From IMG/VR virus record IMGVR_UViG_3300023543_000254, positions 1-23,244 of that record: a stretch of DNA of 23,244 nt; one strand, given 5' to 3'. Below the pieces are notes generated by a model. The model was not told the origin of the DNA, did no database searches, and saw only the letters and a program-made list of their open reading frames with translations. Shown here one piece after another: positions 3,487 through 16,544 of the stretch. Origin of the DNA: a virus. Lineage: Duplodnaviria; Heunggongvirae; Uroviricota; Caudoviricetes. Each line of letters begins with the position of its first letter. Position 1 is the stretch's first letter. Position numbers and translations under genes: made by a program.

Positions 3487-3531
3487 CCTTCTATAGTTGC
3501 AAAGCAAGATTTTTTTTCATCGTTGTGGCAG

Positions 3532-3549
3532 TGTATGATTTTTGGCACA
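3532..3549. promoter_or_regulatory. TGT-N12-ACA dyad, candidate Ogr/B-type late activator site for the V operon
   Basis: Sequence tgt-atgatttttggc-aca read directly; centred about 55 nt upstream of V ATG; P2-family late promoters carry this dyad near -55 (established knowledge). Confidence 0.35.
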
Positions 3550-3562
3550 ATTGAATTCTCAT

Positions 3563-4723
3563 ATGGAGATGACTGAAATGATCTTTGCTGCACGTTACTT
3601 GGTCGAGTTGCCTTATGTCCTCAATATTCCAGATGGTGATTATGATTTTCTATATGAAAATAACCATTTACGCTTAACAGTTCACAACGATTACTATGCA
3701 CTATTTAAAGATGCAAGCTTATTCCCTCAAACCCTATTAATCGGTACCAGAGAACAACTACTACCACATCACACAAATGAAAGAGGGATAATGAAATGCC
3801 GGACTATTATTTCTCTCGCCAACTATTGGGAATGTTTTGACCTTTTAGAAATATCACATGAAGAACTAATCAACTCTATAAGAAACCAAATAAGGAAAGA
3901 AGATAACTTCCCATCTGTGGAAGATGCTGAGATGTTCCTATCCAAAATGAGCCAGCAAGATATAGATAAAAAAATAGAGTTAGAGAGAAAAATAAAAACT
4001 GCTAGAGAGATATTTCCACCTAAAAGATCAGAGGAATGTATCGGAATAATAAACCACTTTATAAAACAGTATAGAGTTGCCTTTAAAGATCAATTTGCAG
4101 ACGAGATATCTCTTTATCAAGTTGGCTCAGGATTTACCAACGGAGTGTTACAAGAGCATTATTGCGATGGTATTAAGATAAGTGCAATTCCTTTAGTTGG
4201 AGTAATCACCCCATTAATGAGAGAAAGCTGGTATAAACACGATGAAAGTCTCATTGATAATTTCAAAAAACGTTTAATGTCAAATGAATTCAATGAACAT
4301 CCTGAACTATTATTGATTAGAGCAGACAATCTTGTTCATAAAGGTGCATTTAGATCAGCCGTAATTGAAGCATCAGCAGGCCTTGAAAGCTATATTCTCA
4401 GAAAAATTATTAATGCCTTTCATCGCAATGGTATCAATGAATGCCAGACAAAAGAAACATTAAATAAAAACTGGAAGTTCGATGATAGATGTAAAAAACT
4501 ATTCAAACAACTCTTTAACATCTCTGTACCCGAAATTGCGCCACTTGAGTGGCAACATGCAAATAAAAACAGGAAAGAATTACGTGACAAAATAGCTCAT
4601 ACATCACATGAACCAACAGAGAAAGAAACAAAAGAATTTATAAAAAGCATCAATTTATTAATTGAAAAAATAGACTCATACTTTAAGAAAATTAATGAAT
4701 CTAACGAATCAAAAAATTTATGA
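3563..4723 (+). CDS. Hypothetical protein, AT-rich cargo gene between S and V (ORF30-equivalent position); candidate defence/abortive-infection gene
   Basis: Long plus-strand ORF (track 3542..4723 from TTG; first ATG 3563; ATG 3578 has GGAG 9 nt upstream) in visibly AT-rich DNA between GC-rich S and V. No motif recognised with confidence; two Rx4-6H-like strings (RKIINAFH, RDKIAH) near C-terminus. Confidence 0.6.
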   Translation: MEMTEMIFAARYLVELPYVLNIPDGDYDFLYENNHLRLTVHNDYYALFKDASLFPQTLLIGTREQLLPHHTNERGIMKCRTIISLANYWECFDLLEISHEELINSIRNQIRKEDNFPSVEDAEMFLSKMSQQDIDKKIELERKIKTAREIFPPKRSEECIGIINHFIKQYRVAFKDQFADEISLYQVGSGFTNGVLQEHYCDGIKISAIPLVGVITPLMRESWYKHDESLIDNFKKRLMSNEFNEHPELLLIRADNLVHKGAFRSAVIEASAGLESYILRKIINAFHRNGINECQTKETLNKNWKFDDRCKKLFKQLFNISVPEIAPLEWQHANKNRKELRDKIAHTSHEPTEKETKEFIKSINLLIEKIDSYFKKINESNESKNL

Positions 4724-5147
4724 TTATCTCTTCTATAATATCAAAATCAGTATCATAAATTCCAAGTAACCTACGTTTAGCATAACGTATCTGTGGCCCC
4801 TTACGGCTGACGCGATCACGCAAGCCGTAATGGTGAACACGGGCAATGCGCTGTACCTTACCTTCAAACTGCACGCTGGCAGAGTCGGCGCTGGCGGCAG
4901 TTTTCAGGTATTTTGTGGTGCGAAGTTTTGTAAACATCTGCCGTTTGATACGGCCTTTTTTACTGCGTGCTGTTACTCGCCTCGGTTCATAGCTGCTGCC
5001 ATCAGGATTGCGTTGCATCCTGATGTTCTGCTGCTGTGTCCGGCGCAGTTCCTGCGCCAGCTGGCGCATCATGCGGCTTCTGGCGGCTGGTTCCAGATTC
5101 GCCAGCAAGGCACTCAGCCAGTCGTCCACTTTCTGCAGTTCAGCCAC
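4701..5147 (-). CDS. S: Tail completion protein S
   Basis: 148-aa ORF ...RNPDGSSYEPRRVTARSKKGRIKRQMFTKLRTTKYLK...VHHYGLRDRV... typical of P2 gpS; GTG start at 5147; last ~19 codons in AT-rich DNA, overlapping the 3' end of the cargo ORF. Confidence 0.8.
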   Translation of the reverse strand: MAELQKVDDWLSALLANLEPAARSRMMRQLAQELRRTQQQNIRMQRNPDGSSYEPRRVTARSKKGRIKRQMFTKLRTTKYLKTAASADSASVQFEGKVQRIARVHHYGLRDRVSRKGPQIRYAKRRLLGIYDTDFDIIEEIIINFLIR

Positions 5148-12417: not shown

Positions 12418-13442
12418 TGGGAAAGAGTAAGAAAAACCGCGCTGCGGCGACGAATCAGCTCAAGCATAAAAGCCAGACTTCAGCCGAAGCATTCAGCTTT
12501 GGCGATCCCGTTCCTGTTCTGGACCGCCGTGAACTGCTGGACTATGTGGAATGCGTACAGATGGACCGCTGGTATGAGCCGCCCGTCAGCTTTGACGGAC
12601 TGGCACGAACCTTCCGCGCTGCCGTGCATCACAGCTCACCGATTGCAGTAAAATGCAACATTCTGACCAGCACCTACATCCCTCACCCGCTGCTCAGCCA
12701 GCAGGCTTTTTCACGTTTTGTGCAGGACTATCTGGTATTTGGTAACGCCTACCTGGAGAAACGCACGAACCGCTTCGGTGAAGTTATCGCCCTTGAGCCT
12801 GCTCTGGCAAAATACACCCGACGCGGGTTAGACCTGGATACCTACTGGTTTGTGCAATACGGCATGACCACGCAGCCGTATCAGTTCACGAAAGGCAGCA
12901 TTTTCCATCTGATGGAACCGGACATAAATCAGGAGATCTATGGCCTGCCCGGCTATCTTTCTGCTATTCCGTCAGCCCTGCTCAATGAGTCCGCCACGCT
13001 GTTCCGTCGCAAGTATTACATTAACGGCAGTCACGCGGGCTTCATCATGTACATGACCGATGCCGCGCAGAACCAGGAGGACGTGAACAACCTCCGCAAC
13101 GCGATGAAAAGCGCCAAAGGACCGGGTAACTTCCGCAACCTGTTTATGTACTCACCTAACGGCAAAAAGGACGGGCTTCAGATTATCCCGTTGTCAGAGG
13201 TCGCGGCGAAGGATGAGTTTCTGAATATCAAAAATGTCAGCCGCGATGACATGATGGCTGCGCACCGCGTACCGCCTCAGATGATGGGGATAATGCCAAA
13301 TAATGTTGGGGGTTTTGGGGATGTGGAAAAAGCGAGCTTGGTCTTTGTTCGTAATGAACTTATTCCTTTACAAAAAAGGCTTGAGGAGGTAAACACATGG
13401 GTAAGTGATGAAATAGTTCGCTTTAAAGATTATGTTTTATAG
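12417..13442 (+). CDS. Q: Portal protein Q
   Basis: ORF track 12414..13442 from TTG; ATG at 12417 overlaps P stop; about 341 aa, matching P2 gpQ size and P-Q order. Confidence 0.9.
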   Translation: MGKSKKNRAAATNQLKHKSQTSAEAFSFGDPVPVLDRRELLDYVECVQMDRWYEPPVSFDGLARTFRAAVHHSSPIAVKCNILTSTYIPHPLLSQQAFSRFVQDYLVFGNAYLEKRTNRFGEVIALEPALAKYTRRGLDLDTYWFVQYGMTTQPYQFTKGSIFHLMEPDINQEIYGLPGYLSAIPSALLNESATLFRRKYYINGSHAGFIMYMTDAAQNQEDVNNLRNAMKSAKGPGNFRNLFMYSPNGKKDGLQIIPLSEVAAKDEFLNIKNVSRDDMMAAHRVPPQMMGIMPNNVGGFGDVEKASLVFVRNELIPLQKRLEEVNTWVSDEIVRFKDYVL

Positions 13443-13484
13443 TCACCTTAAAATTAAAATAACCATAAAACATTAGTAATCTAA

Positions 13485-13504
13485 AGAGGCGCTAGAGCGC
13501 CTCT
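13485..13504. terminator. Perfect 8-bp inverted repeat between convergent Q and ATPase genes, candidate bidirectional terminator
   Basis: agaggcgc-taga-gcgcctct read directly, flanked by U-rich sequence on both strands. Confidence 0.35.
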
Positions 13505-13514
13505 TCTAATTATC

Positions 13515-14822
13515 TCAACCTTCATAGAGAAGTTTTTTCTTACGTATCTCTTCACTAAATGTCTTGGAATTCAAGTCAATCAAATTAAGATCTCGAACTT
13601 TTCTAGATGCTGTATATTGACTAGTATCCAGCATATATGCCTCAAAAACTAAGCCATCAGCACCTTTCTTCAAAGTAACCCGAGACTGGACTAAATGCAC
13701 TAATCTTAAATCAATTAACTGGTTAATAGCATCCTTGACAGGGCCAGTCATTTTTTGATTAATTAGAAAAATATTACATTTTGCATCATTCAAACAAAAT
13801 GCCACAAGTTTTGTGAATGCTTCCTCCAAGGCAATACGATCATCATCAGCATCTAATTTAAATTCTTCACGCTTGATATCACCATATTCACCAGTAGCAA
13901 GATTCACATCTTCTGCACCAATTCGAGGACCTCTAGGATGATCTGGCCCTCTTTCTCTCGCATGGTTAATAGCTTTAGTAAATATCCCAATAAAGTCCCT
14001 AGTAACACCACCCGAAGCAATAATCAACCTATCTACTGCAGTCGTATTTAATAGTCCATTTACTGTGATAGGCGGCGTTTCTACCATTAGATTAGTGAGT
14101 ATTTTTTGCATAAACTGTTTTAAAGTTGCAAATTTTTCCAAAGAAATATCTATATTTATTTCTTTTGCATCATCACCAAGTTTAACACCAGTAGGAGGAT
14201 CTGTATGAATATACCATTCACTTCTATGCTTGATAGTACCAATTTTCAACCACAAACCATTTCCTTTGGCAACCCTATGAAAATAATCAATAACTTTAGC
14301 CTGATCACTTCTTCTAATATGATATAGATCATCAAGTATTAAATATGCCGGCCCTTCAGACAATTCGGAAAGCTTGTTAAAAAACCTTTGAAACTTAAGT
14401 ATATTTTGATGTAAGTATTCAGTTTTTAATGATTTATATCCTTCACTAATTTCTTTGGTACCTGTATTTCCTTTTTTAACTCCCACTCCTACATCTACTG
14501 GACCTTGCTTCAAGGAAGCATTACCAGAAGCTTCAAAACTTCTTGTGGAAGTTTCCTTTCTTTGCACATTAATTTCTTCTGGCTGCAAAAGTTTATTTTC
14601 TAAATCTTGAATGATGCTTTTGAGCTCACGGACAAGCTCATTTGTAGGATTTTTTTTGAAAGGTTTCCTTTCCGGCGCTCTACCAAAAATTCGATTCCAA
14701 AAAGTAGTTTTAGTAGCTGGGGTTAATGCAGCAGTTTCTAACCAAACCTCGAATTCTTGTAGGCTTTTAATAAGAACACTAATTAGGACATCAGGGTATG
14801 AATGACCTTTAAATGTCTCCAT
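13515..14822 (-). CDS. C-terminal segment of a P-loop ATPase (carries Walker B-like LILDD), AT-rich cargo
   Basis: 435-aa ORF in AT-rich DNA; hhhhDD motif (AYLILDDLYH) about 165 residues in; no Walker A of its own; upstream neighbour carries the Walker A in a different frame. Confidence 0.6.
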   Translation of the reverse strand: METFKGHSYPDVLISVLIKSLQEFEVWLETAALTPATKTTFWNRIFGRAPERKPFKKNPTNELVRELKSIIQDLENKLLQPEEINVQRKETSTRSFEASGNASLKQGPVDVGVGVKKGNTGTKEISEGYKSLKTEYLHQNILKFQRFFNKLSELSEGPAYLILDDLYHIRRSDQAKVIDYFHRVAKGNGLWLKIGTIKHRSEWYIHTDPPTGVKLGDDAKEINIDISLEKFATLKQFMQKILTNLMVETPPITVNGLLNTTAVDRLIIASGGVTRDFIGIFTKAINHARERGPDHPRGPRIGAEDVNLATGEYGDIKREEFKLDADDDRIALEEAFTKLVAFCLNDAKCNIFLINQKMTGPVKDAINQLIDLRLVHLVQSRVTLKKGADGLVFEAYMLDTSQYTASRKVRDLNLIDLNSKTFSEEIRKKKLLYEG

Positions 14823-14848
14823 ATCAACAAAAGAAATTGGTCTTCTAT

Positions 14849-15073
14849 CTATTGTAGATCTGCAACTACCTTCCTCAACAATGAGGACTTACCAGAGCCC
14901 CTTCTACCAAAAATCAAACTGTGCTGCTTGGCTTTCGATTGAGCAAGAACGCCAGGCGCGGGTTCTATGAATCTCTTGACATTTTCAGGCGTAGCCCTCA
15001 TAGCTTCATCACACAAAATGATCAAGTTATCTACTTGTTCATCTCTTAACTGAGATATTTCGTTTTTAGACAT
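14849..15073 (-). CDS. N-terminal segment of the same P-loop ATPase (Walker A GRRGSGKSSLL); probable frameshift-split gene
   Basis: 74-aa ORF with AAGGA RBS; Walker A at residues 56-63, then a stop; next ORF starts 27 nt downstream in the -1 frame. Confidence 0.55.
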   Translation of the reverse strand: MSKNEISQLRDEQVDNLIILCDEAMRATPENVKRFIEPAPGVLAQSKAKQHSLIFGRRGSGKSSLLRKVVADLQ

Positions 15074-15175
15074 TGGAAAATCCTTTTAGGAAAAAGCTCA
15101 AGCTATCAAGAATCCTTTATCCGAACAACTGTTTTAATTTATATATCTATCTGGTTCAGCGCGCGCTCGTATCCC

Positions 15176-15194
15176 CGCCACGCCTGCCCGCTTT
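15176..15194 (-). other. Candidate cos site (cohesive-end core)
   Basis: Minus strand reads ggcgtggcggggatacgag; first 13 nt identical to the 186 cos core as I recall it (GGCGTGGCGGGGA...), 14 of 19 match recalled P2 cos; orientation correct relative to Q; sits in a GC-rich island between AT-rich cargo blocks. Confidence 0.45.
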
Positions 15195-15239
15195 ATGTAG
15201 TGGTTTTCATGCAGGTGCATGATCTACGCAAAAGCCCGC

Positions 15240-15263
15240 CAGTTCTGGCGGGCCTTAGCGAAA
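15240..15263 (-). terminator. GC-rich hairpin followed by U-run on minus strand, candidate rho-independent terminator
   Basis: gcccgcc-agttct-ggcgggc with aaaa on the plus-strand 5' side (UUUU after the stem on the minus strand). Confidence 0.35.
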
Positions 15264-15526
15264 ACGATCCTCAAACGATCATGCAATCTCATGCAGCATA
15301 GACATGCACAGACGAGTAAAGCGAATCGGACCTTACGCAAGGTGAACTCCTCAGCGGGCATAATCAGTATGTCGGAAGATCTCTAAAAATAAATAATTCG
15401 GTTAACAGGTATGCTTACAAAAGCATATATTTGATTAAAAATCATGTAAGGGGGAGGATCTCAAACTGAATCGCCACGGGTTTTACAAATTTCGATAGTC
15501 TCTCTAACGTTTCGGCTGAGGTCAAA

Positions 15527-15952
15527 ATGAAAAGCTTTTACGTATTAATTTTAATTCTGGTTGCAAGCTTTGTTAGCGTCCCAGTTCAGGCGGTAACAGC
15601 TAAAAACTATGAGAAAGGAACTAAAGCTCAACAGAAATCAATATCTTACCTTTCATGTGCATTCTATGGCAGTAGCACACAATTAGATCCTAGCTACACG
15701 GAGCAAGTACCTACAGCCGATATCAAGATATTACAGAAAGCAGCTTACCACGCTTACAACGATGCGCTCTCATACTTTGGCTATGAGGAACCAGATCACG
15801 AACAACGCATAATTGATTATGCTGAATTTGTGGCGTCGCAAGAAGCTGTGTTATGGGATAAGCCGGGAATGAATGGAAAGCAGGTAACACTAATTGCTCG
15901 TTCTCTCTACAATGAGAGTAACTGTAACTTGTTACTGGACTCAATTAAGTAG
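15527..15952 (+). CDS. Small secreted/periplasmic protein of unknown function (signal peptide), AT-rich cargo
   Basis: 141-aa ORF; N-terminus MKSFYVLILILVASFVSVPVQA looks like a Sec signal peptide with AxA-like cleavage site; two Cys in mature part; TGAGG RBS. Confidence 0.65.
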   Translation: MKSFYVLILILVASFVSVPVQAVTAKNYEKGTKAQQKSISYLSCAFYGSSTQLDPSYTEQVPTADIKILQKAAYHAYNDALSYFGYEEPDHEQRIIDYAEFVASQEAVLWDKPGMNGKQVTLIARSLYNESNCNLLLDSIK

Positions 15953-16111: not shown

Positions 16112-16345
16112 TTAATGCAGCCAGCTGTCGTCTTCCCACACCTTCTGCATAATCTTCATCACTTGTTTTCTTTCTTCGTCCAGTTGCAGTCCGGTCAGTT
16201 CCACACCGTTAGAGCTACCTTTGCGGATGCGAATTACCATTTTGGGATACAGGGGGCGCAGATTGCGGTAAAGCTCGGATTCAAGGGCGTCCAGGGTAGA
16301 CTGGCTAATCTTCTGCTCTTTATCGATCATTATTTCAATGCGCAT
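16112..16345 (-). CDS. dinI: DinI-like protein
   Basis: ORF track 16112..16417; ATG at 16345 with GAGGTGA RBS gives MRIEIMIDKEQKISQSTLDALESELYRNLRPLYPKMVIRIRKGSSNGVELTGLQLDEERKQVMKIMQKVWEDDSWL, which resembles E. coli DinI (MRIEVTIAKT...ALAGELSRRI...) in length and pattern. Confidence 0.8.
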   Translation of the reverse strand: MRIEIMIDKEQKISQSTLDALESELYRNLRPLYPKMVIRIRKGSSNGVELTGLQLDEERKQVMKIMQKVWEDDSWLH

Positions 16346-16355
16346 AAAGGTCACC

Positions 16356-16544
16356 TCAGCTGATGACATCCATTGAGCGGTTGTATTCGTGGGTTCTGAT
16401 TTTTGCCATGAGTTCATCAGTCAATTCAGAAACCCACTGCAGAGCCAGCCCCTTCTCTTCATCACTACACTCACTAGCCGCTACAAGCTTAAGAAAAAAA
16501 TCAATGCGCTGGAGCTTCAAAGACTCCAAAAAATAGTCCTGCAT
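16356..16544 (-). CDS. Small protein (62 aa) at head of LexA-controlled operon; possible Tum-like antirepressor
   Basis: ATG with strong AGGAGG RBS; 43 nt downstream of a perfect LexA box; function by position only. Confidence 0.55.
   Translation of the reverse strand: MQDYFLESLKLQRIDFFLKLVAASECSDEEKGLALQWVSELTDELMAKIRTHEYNRSMDVIS

Follow-up and report, generated by a model that had tools for sequence, protein, structure and literature searches.

Amongst phages related to P2, the cos-proximal interval between gpA and gpQ is a hotspot for accessory genes, for which 1,650 gene arrangements have been catalogued and several anti-phage systems validated (Rousset et al., PMC9122126). The same hotspots also hold cargo unrelated to defence, for example partition systems and toxins (PMC9122126). 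Elsewhere, a stand-alone ATPase termed DS-41 ('AAA2', WP_033812887.1), encoded by a single gene and 502 amino acids (aa) in length, protected Escherichia coli from several BASEL phages (DefensePredictor, PMC13092281). The subject of the present analysis is a distant relative of DS-41, situated at 13515..15073 on the minus strand of a 23,244-nt stretch of viral DNA (IMG/VR record IMGVR_UViG_3300023543_000254, positions 1 to 23,244; hereafter the window), where it is broken into two open reading frames (ORFs). The favoured reading, to which a probability of roughly 0.55 is attached when all of its parts are taken together, is that these ORFs constitute one gene, that this gene is a dead pseudogene carried as prophage cargo and encoding an AAA+ ATPase of the ORC/Cdc6-like kind, and that its intact form acts as an anti-phage switch.

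The split gene and its intact alleles

The 5′ fragment, ORF1 (14849..15073, minus strand), encodes 74 aa and consists of the intact codons 1-73, an aberrant Q codon and a premature TAG. Its product contains N-terminal helices, strand beta1, the Walker A motif and part of helix alpha1. The Walker A stretch, GRRGSGKSS (residues 56-64), occupies 14882..14908 on the minus strand, as computed from the ORF1 start, and the product ends shortly thereafter with ...GRRGSGKSSLLRKVVADLQ (in a longer extract, ...FGRRGSGKSSLLRKVVADLQ) before the stop codon. The 3′ fragment, ORF2 (13515..14822, minus strand), encodes 435 aa that correspond to intact residues 85-519 read from an internal Met, and harbours a helical/beta-hairpin insertion, Walker B, the sensor regions, the lid and a C-terminal winged-helix-like domain, with secondary structure taken from the structural model. 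Within it, the Walker B stretch LILDD (...YLILDDLYHIRR; intact residues 245-249; 14328..14342, minus strand) lies on model strand 243-248, and a hypervariable, predicted-disordered loop (intact residues 171-211; 14442..14564, minus strand) forms the tip of a beta-hairpin in the insertion between the Walker motifs. Relative to ORF1, the reading frame of ORF2 is -1 (+2), given that (15073-14822) mod 3 = 2, and 26 nt separate the ORF1 stop from the ORF2 ATG. Direct reading of the sequence reveals a Shine-Dalgarno-like AAGGA 8 nt 5′ of the ORF1 ATG, and no such motif in front of that of ORF2. The G+C content of the 13515-15073 stretch is 35.7%, compared with 51-57% for the portal, terminase and gpA (replication) genes. 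An earlier note on this DNA, made from the letters alone, had already recognised both ORFs with their Walker motifs, the good ribosome-binding site of ORF1, the -1 frame and the prospect of a joined gene, all of which are upheld. Its figures of 27 nt for the spacing, about 515 aa for the joined protein and roughly 180 residues between the Walker motifs are replaced by 26 nt, 519 aa and 186 residues (Walker A K62 to Walker B D248), respectively.

That note had also proposed a P-loop ATPase gene split by a frameshift, and intact alleles bear this out. In a megablast search of 5,426 complete E. coli genomes, four chromosomes span the whole query (13400-15300) at 99.1-99.9% identity, with a matched length of 1902 bases in each, compared with 1901 in the window. 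All four loci (L001-L004) are annotated with a single 1560-nt coding sequence for a 519-aa 'hypothetical protein' (WP_023150398.1 or WP_155430322.1), which, within a P2-family prophage, runs convergently with the portal gene, with a DinI-like gene and a replication endonuclease following. A MAFFT alignment of the window with the four intact alleles contains one gap and at most 3 substitutions, and, together with direct comparison of the junction, places the lesion at 14855/14856 (minus strand), within the 14815..14895 stretch that the earlier note had suggested for inspection. It is a single-base deletion, removing one A of an AA dinucleotide at codon 73/74, such that the intact GAT CTA ACA ATA GAT AGA (D-L-T-I-D-R) becomes GAT CTA CAA TAG (CTAACA to CTACA), with the premature TAG two codons past the deletion and just after Walker A. 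The lesion falls inside residues 61-80, the best-conserved block of the protein (mean column conservation 0.94). The two ORFs are thus pieces of one gene, which is very probably a pseudogene here. As the window copy otherwise differs from the intact alleles by just 1-3 bases, loss of the gene is recent. The 74-aa product is devoid of everything past the P-loop helix, and the 435-aa ORF, which starts at an internal Met with no ribosome-binding site, is missing strand beta1, the P-loop, helix alpha1 and strand beta2. It would follow that neither fragment can supply a functional ATPase.

Two other accounts of the split have to be considered, the first being that the frameshift is an error of sequencing or assembly and that the gene in this genome is really intact, an option that the earlier note had left standing. 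A lesion of one missing base, in a copy whose intact counterparts are otherwise so close, is what such an error would produce. The same allele nevertheless recurs in many independent assemblies: across 50 index blocks, the exact 435-aa product is found on at least 23 public contigs and the exact 74-aa product on 26, from differing sources and samples. Several NCBI accessions from E. coli already cover the two fragment products amongst public proteins, and an independently assembled metagenome contig from ENA matches the window at 100% identity across 7,308 nt, deletion included. Furthermore, the site is an AA dinucleotide rather than a long homopolymer prone to insertion or deletion. Recurrence of an identical allele in independent assemblies thus disfavours an error, which is rated as highly improbable, and on this evidence the broken allele is a real circulating mutation.

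The other account is that the split is functional, in that the 519 aa are restored by programmed -1 frameshifting on the ribosome or by slippage during transcription, or in that the two polypeptides together form an active ATPase. A -1 slip after the CUA codon would recreate the wild-type D-L-T-I-D-R-R exactly, and a stop codon stands immediately next to it. However, the site (GAUCUACAAUAG) holds neither an X XXY YYZ slippery heptamer nor a homopolymer run, in line with the earlier note, which had seen no such heptamer and had thought programmed frameshifting the less likely option. Every homologue examined is a single in-frame ORF, the frameshift being conserved in none of the >1300 listed homologues or 262 species loci, and the allele is in frame in all four complete E. 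coli genomes. It follows from these single intact homologues that ORF1 and ORF2 are not separate conserved genes. ORF2 is without a Shine-Dalgarno motif, the break lies within helix alpha1 and costs both pieces strand beta2, and the same gene has suffered different, plainly destructive lesions in Enterobacter hormaechei. Recoding is consequently regarded as the least credible of all the readings weighed herein, and inactivation by a single-base deletion is retained.

The E. hormaechei homologues (P0122, P0126 and P0142), which belong to the cluster of the window protein, carry other disruptive lesions that were seen as protein products. A 436-aa form, truncated C-terminally after ...AKCNIF, occurs on 264 contigs (P0122) and on 8 contigs (P0126), and a 65-aa product resulting from a frameshift inside Walker A occurs on 5. 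Intact 519-aa alleles from this species are on far fewer contigs, with 33 for the commonest among those listed, although such counts may mirror clonal sampling. Two metagenome-assembled genomes may hold further pseudogenes of the family, namely a Halothiobacillus homologue with an internal stop codon (L079:314-1855) and an Enterobacterales match of 1558 nt, which is not a multiple of three (L023:6001-7558).

Fold and family of the repaired protein

Once repaired, the protein passes the Pfam ORC-CDC6-like family PF24389 at 38.9 bits (E 6e-10; gathering cut-off 27), whilst the separate fragments score 24.5 and 19.2 bits, both under that cut-off. The match covers parts of the 571-position model (residues 30-67 and 136-244), and so the repaired protein, although within threshold, represents a shorter and divergent branch of what is a pool of bacterial AAA+ ATPases. 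Nearly all of the listed homologues carry a precomputed PF24389 match. Below threshold, Pfam matches extend to AAA_16, ATPase_2 (PF01637; 21.5 bits vs a cut-off of 33.2), AAA_22 and nSTAND models, and a comparison with PHROGs returned nothing meaningful. When the family profile was compared with every chain in the PDB, no significant relative emerged (best E 0.035, spurious), and fold comparison is therefore the only informative route to known structures. Every top fold match is an AAA+, STAND or ORC-Cdc6 protein, including MalT, Cdc6/Orc1 and DnaA, with fold-match figures of 14.7 for TnsC, 13.9 for MuB, 14.2 for CED-4 and 12.4 for RdrA; plant NLRs, Avs3 and BrxC are also represented. The viral fold search (BFVD) produced generic AAA+/clamp-loader matches only, with a template modelling (TM) score < 0.4.

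The structural model begins with a helical segment, which is followed by the AAA+ core, a lid made of helices and, at the C terminus, a helix/beta-hairpin domain. The hallmarks of an AAA+ protein are all present, in that there is an alpha/beta core, a Walker A and a Walker B, a polar sensor-1 ending beta4, and a helical lid with a sensor-2 arginine. Specifically, Walker A (residues 56-64), Walker B (245-249), T280, with which strand beta4 ends, and an invariant R284 belong to the core, and the lid (~338-408) bears an invariant GGVxR359D motif. In an alignment of 150 sequences (A4), F55-K62, D248 and D249 are invariant. From the model, the fold class is very probably AAA+, of the clade that unites ORC/Cdc6, STAND and 'archaeal ATPase' (PF01637) proteins.

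The 186-residue spacing of the Walker motifs is explained by an insertion of ~110 residues (~114-224) in the alpha2 region of this core, between beta2/alpha2 and beta3, which is the position of the initiator-specific motif (ISM) of ORC/Cdc6/DnaA. The insertion is made up of helices and a beta-hairpin, the tip of which is a poorly conserved loop rich in Ser, Gly, Lys and Glu. Residues 171-211 are the only segment with a predicted local distance difference test (pLDDT) score < 50 (model 2), and column conservation is 0.39-0.52 across 141-220, compared with ~0.85 in the flanking blocks. Beyond the lid, the C-terminal domain (~410-490) is built from a helix (413-430), a strand (435-439), a second helix (445-455) and a hairpin (459-466/477-482), and has as its aligned counterpart the C-terminal domain found in archaeal ORC/Cdc6-like ATPases; 307 of the 350 residues of 2qen align with the model. 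By this fold match, the domain can be read as winged-helix-like.

These results depart from the earlier note in two respects. It had regarded the protein as ABC/OLD/SMC-like rather than classical AAA+, and had described the C-terminal domain as uncharacterised, whereas PF24389 is passed, the top folds are AAA+/STAND/ORC-Cdc6, and the C-terminal half aligns with the lid and C-terminal domain of archaeal ORC/Cdc6-like ATPases. A defence ATPase of ABC, OLD or SMC type with a novel C-terminal domain would be in keeping with a Walker A of the form GxxGxGKSSLL, as in many ABC proteins, with the 186-residue Walker A-B distance, and with the presence of P2 old in the same general locus. Pfam results and fold matches contradict it. 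ABC_tran (12.7 bits), SMC_N, AAA_23 and AAA_29 match at the level of the P-loop only, at E 0.03-0.2 and below threshold, the protein does not qualify as an ABC or SMC ATPase (defined by an ABC fold with an LSGGQ signature), and no ABC, SMC or OLD chain appears among the top 60 fold matches. Such an ATPase is accordingly viewed as scarcely tenable. With regard to the profiles that the earlier note had named, AAA_15, AAA_21 and Toprim have no Pfam match at E <= 1, and the Old/GajA models have no PADLOC match at E <= 1, which confirms its own impression that Toprim is absent and shows the repaired protein to be no canonical OLD or Gabija protein. The KAP and SMC models stay below threshold, KAP_NTPase reaching 17.1 bits (cut-off 20); as the insertion is predicted to consist of soluble helices, a hairpin and a polar disordered loop, the protein does not qualify as a member of KAP/Tmn either. 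The ABC/OLD/SMC/Gabija class as a whole was rejected on the combined Pfam, PADLOC and fold evidence.

Distribution, proposed function and prophage locus

Beta- and Gammaproteobacteria have many close homologues of ~520 aa, with 56-87% identity. When 1.84 billion cluster representatives were searched exhaustively, 826 clusters matched at E <= 1e-3, nearly all of them 480-560 aa in length and matching end to end. With one genome taken per species, 262 of 185,579 species have a full-length relative, at 44-82% identity. These 262 loci are distributed over Proteobacteria, Acidobacteriota, Planctomycetota, Verrucomicrobiota, Chloroflexota, Gemmatimonadota, Nitrospirota, Myxococcota, Elusimicrobiota and Actinomycetota, and also include a Paenibacillus. 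Judged from such comparisons, the family is rare, widely scattered (at least ten phyla) and strongly conserved save for one hypervariable loop. Clustering of all ORFs within 4 kb identified no conserved partner, as no neighbour family occurs in more than 3 of 80 loci, and PADLOC and Pfam scans of the neighbours gave no enrichment of defence genes. Four contexts that were inspected are unrelated to each other: aroA-cmk in Serratia, toxin-antitoxin pairs in Sideroxyarcus, a ribonucleotide reductase in Xanthomonas and an RND pump in a metagenome chromosome. One homologue of 606 aa (P0401) has a LuxR/GerE-type helix-turn-helix (HTH; PF00196) fused to the PF24389 ATPase, an arrangement that recalls MalT-type STAND transcription regulators.

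Under the favoured reading, a P2-like prophage would have taken up this AT-rich, stand-alone gene horizontally, into the variable cargo locus between Q and cos. In the intact protein, ATP binding (through K62, D248/D249, the candidate sensor-1 T280, and the invariant R284 and R359) would drive self-assembly into a ring or filament, as in Cdc6/Orc1, TnsC/MuB, RdrA and STAND proteins; all close structural relatives of the window protein self-assemble. Contact with DNA, or with some component of the phage, would then fall to the winged-helix-like domain at the C terminus and to the ISM-position insertion, whose hypervariable and disordered hairpin tip would set specificity, and the outcome, by likeness to DS-41, would be the exclusion of superinfecting phages. 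Taken on its own, the proposal that the intact protein is anti-phage, with DNA binding and oligomerisation as its means, is tentative and falls a little short of even odds. Rather more doubtful is a fuller version, in which the gene would be a one-protein system against phages or mobile elements, distinct from DS-41, ORC/Cdc6-like and effector-less, which would recognise incoming DNA or a protein of the phage via the hairpin loop, assemble on it and by itself block replication or packaging, its repeated inactivation in clinical Enterobacterales reflecting a fitness cost or autoimmunity.

A number of observations weigh against an anti-phage role. Identity remains at 44-50% across phyla, an unusually high degree of conservation for a defence gene; the immediate neighbours include methyltransferases in 4/147 cases, integrases in 4/147 and PIN proteins in 2/147, the remainder being mostly housekeeping; and collections of 50,697 phage and 72,556 plasmid records contain almost no trace of the family, with one distant tblastn match in each. 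No effector domain is recognisable, and PADLOC yields just a weak partial mad8 match. The C-terminal 150 residues of six family members have no HTH or winged-helix match in Pfam, so that it is the fold match which suggests binding to DNA. Even the connection to DS-41 is loose: on the NCBIfam model that covers its subfamily, the score of 52-55 bits does not reach the curated cut-off of 75, and when the two family profiles were compared with hhalign, the probability was 53% across just 72 columns.

An alternative is therefore that the intact protein has no part in immunity and is an ATP-dependent regulator (a MalT-like switch) or a DNA-transaction factor (initiator- or loader-like) of a mobile element, hitch-hiking in P2 cargo, with the window copy still a pseudogene. 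The mostly housekeeping neighbours, with no evident defence island, the very high conservation across phyla and the want of an effector domain would all suit such a role, as would fold matches that include MalT, Cdc6/Orc1, TnsC, MuB and DnaA, the P0401 fusion, and the non-defence cargo of P2 hotspots (PMC9122126). With a regulator, however, one would expect a conserved target close by, and the 80 loci show no such gene. Also set against it are the patchy distribution (262/185,579 species), resembling that left by horizontal gene transfer, the solitary insertion with its foreign G+C content, the enrichment of the locus in validated defences, and the distant homology to the Sll1717 subfamily, which includes the validated DS-41. 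A non-immune role is on balance considered unlikely. Of the favoured reading, the analysis shows the identity of the gene, its lesion and the spread thereof, its fold class, its solitary and horizontally mobile nature and a locus rich in phage-exclusion genes; DNA binding, oligomerisation and the anti-phage role are inferred.

The window itself is a P2-like (Peduoviridae) prophage; Escherichia phage vB_EcoM-813R9 and a number of Klebsiella phages match ~76% of its length at 95-96% identity. Its genes are arranged in the order tail fibre H, baseplate, lysis, head, terminase P, portal Q, cargo, DinI, gpA, gpB, cox and repressor. On the 5′ side of the ATPase gene is a conserved non-coding block of 165 nt (15136..15300) with a cos-like core, TCCCCGCCACGCC at 15172-15184. 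This core reads GGCGTGGCGGGGA on the minus strand, which we take to resemble the P2/186 cohesive-end sequence (13-nt core, 186-type end); the exact P2 cos 19-mer is absent from the window at <=3 mismatches. The block alone, which has no annotated feature, matches >1200 E. coli genomes at 92-98% identity. With the cos-like core located here, the ATPase gene lies between Q and the cos-like site, and its description in the earlier note as AT-rich cargo in this position is correct. At the other end, a 72-nt gap separates the convergent portal gene (end 13442) from the end of the ATPase gene (13515), and contains an inverted repeat whose 8-bp arms pair perfectly around a loop of 4 nt, AGAGGCGC-tcta-GCGCCTCT (13485..13504), as read directly from the sequence. 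Both genes might use this repeat as a transcription stop; for want of a T-run, it was not called by the terminator scan.

Other cargo is apparent in the window. Just past the cos-like site, a 141-aa ORF (15527..15952, plus strand) has a signal-peptide-like N-terminus (MKSFYVLILILVASFVSVPVQA) and no Pfam match. In near-identical loci it is swapped for a DUF4145 protein (strain MB20) or for another hypothetical protein (strain 1008S19), and is thus an independent cargo module and no partner of the ATPase. Another ORF, of 101 aa (16112..16417, minus strand), has a DinI-like domain at residues 38-100 (PF06183, E 1e-22), and, since the annotated DinI-like genes of related loci encode 77 aa, its true start is probably an internal ATG. 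A second AT-rich island (3500-5000; G+C 0.34-0.39) is flanked by gpV (baseplate) on one side and gpS (tail completion) on the other, and contains an ORF of 393 aa (3542..4723, plus strand) with no Pfam family above threshold. As vB_EcoM-813R9 has other genes at this site (a 'putative enzyme with ATPase activity' and a hypothetical gene), the island is probably another variable cargo locus.

For annotation, the two 'hypothetical' ORFs should be merged into one dead gene of the AAA+ ORC/Cdc6-like class, and not of the ABC/OLD class. The split is an ordinary pseudogene arising from a 1-nt deletion, and the protein falls within a Pfam family that already exists and has been recorded before amongst P2 hotspot cargo: WP_023150398 appears three times as 'hypothetical' in Table S5A of PMC9122126, which was the sole listing found in a literature search for the protein accessions, with no mention in main text. 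Its residence in the P2 cos-proximal hotspot, its solitary and horizontally spread nature and its distant relationship to DS-41 make the family a reasonable candidate for phage-defence screening. Should the intact allele protect, it would add an effector-less ORC-like ATPase to the immune repertoire, for which the window allele provides a natural loss-of-function control. Pseudogenes resembling known defence genes were found to be rare in P2/P4 hotspots by a recent survey (PMC13586616), to which the recurrent lesions of this cargo gene, if it is defensive, would be a small counter-example.

Comparison with known systems

P2 Old and GajA share with the window protein a P-loop NTPase and, in P2-like phages, a place amongst the accessory cargo of the same cos-proximal hotspot. 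Their ATPase is of the ABC type and is joined to Toprim, in contrast to the AAA+ fold of the window protein, for which the combination of AAA_15/AAA_21 with a C-terminal Toprim was not found by Pfam or PADLOC at E <= 1. Amongst systems that are nearer in fold, RdrA of RADAR differs in its partnership, as the window family has neither the RdrB deaminase nor any other conserved partner. STAND/NLR-like proteins (Avs, MalT and CED-4) possess sensor repeats (TPR/LRR/WD40) and usually an N-terminal effector domain, both of which are missing from the window protein, where the chain ends ~60 residues beyond the winged-helix-like domain.

The Cdc6/Orc1 initiators (PDB 2qby, 1fnn and 1w5s) resemble the repaired protein in fold, although the window gene is bacterial, patchy in occurrence and horizontally transferred, and is no initiator orthologue: no origin or helicase gene is associated with it, no neighbour is conserved, and no Cdc6/Orc model is matched above threshold. 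The archaeal 'Walker-type' AAA+ ATPases PAB2304 (PDB 2qen) and SSO1545 (PDB 2fna), of family PF01637, have just 14% sequence identity to the repaired protein, which has the extra insertion of ~110 residues between beta2 and Walker B.

The nearest functional precedent is DS-41, the link to which came via a weak NCBIfam match, 'DS41_1_antiphage'. On the equivalog model of that system (NF053860), the repaired protein scores 16-19 bits (16.1 over the P-loop only) against a cut-off of 370, compared with 414 bits for DS-41 itself, and it does not belong to the DS-41 equivalog. The broader model of the Sll1717 family of P-loop ATPases (NF047389) is matched by the E. coli protein at 54.6 and 51.7 bits (E 1e-14, residues 35-268) and by other members of the family at 28-41 bits (28-54 bits for the family altogether), spanning the whole Walker A-to-Walker B region, with DS-41 reaching 97.6 bits. 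Homology to the Sll1717 subfamily is thus significant by profile comparison, though the window family falls outside the subfamily as curated. From the limited reach of the hhalign match, the window family and DS-41 appear to be distant sisters in one superfamily, rather than the same system. Both are nevertheless stand-alone genes for proteins of ~500 aa, DS-41 having its Walker A near residue 58 and its Walker B ~195 residues later, and some DS-41 homologues likewise match PF24389.

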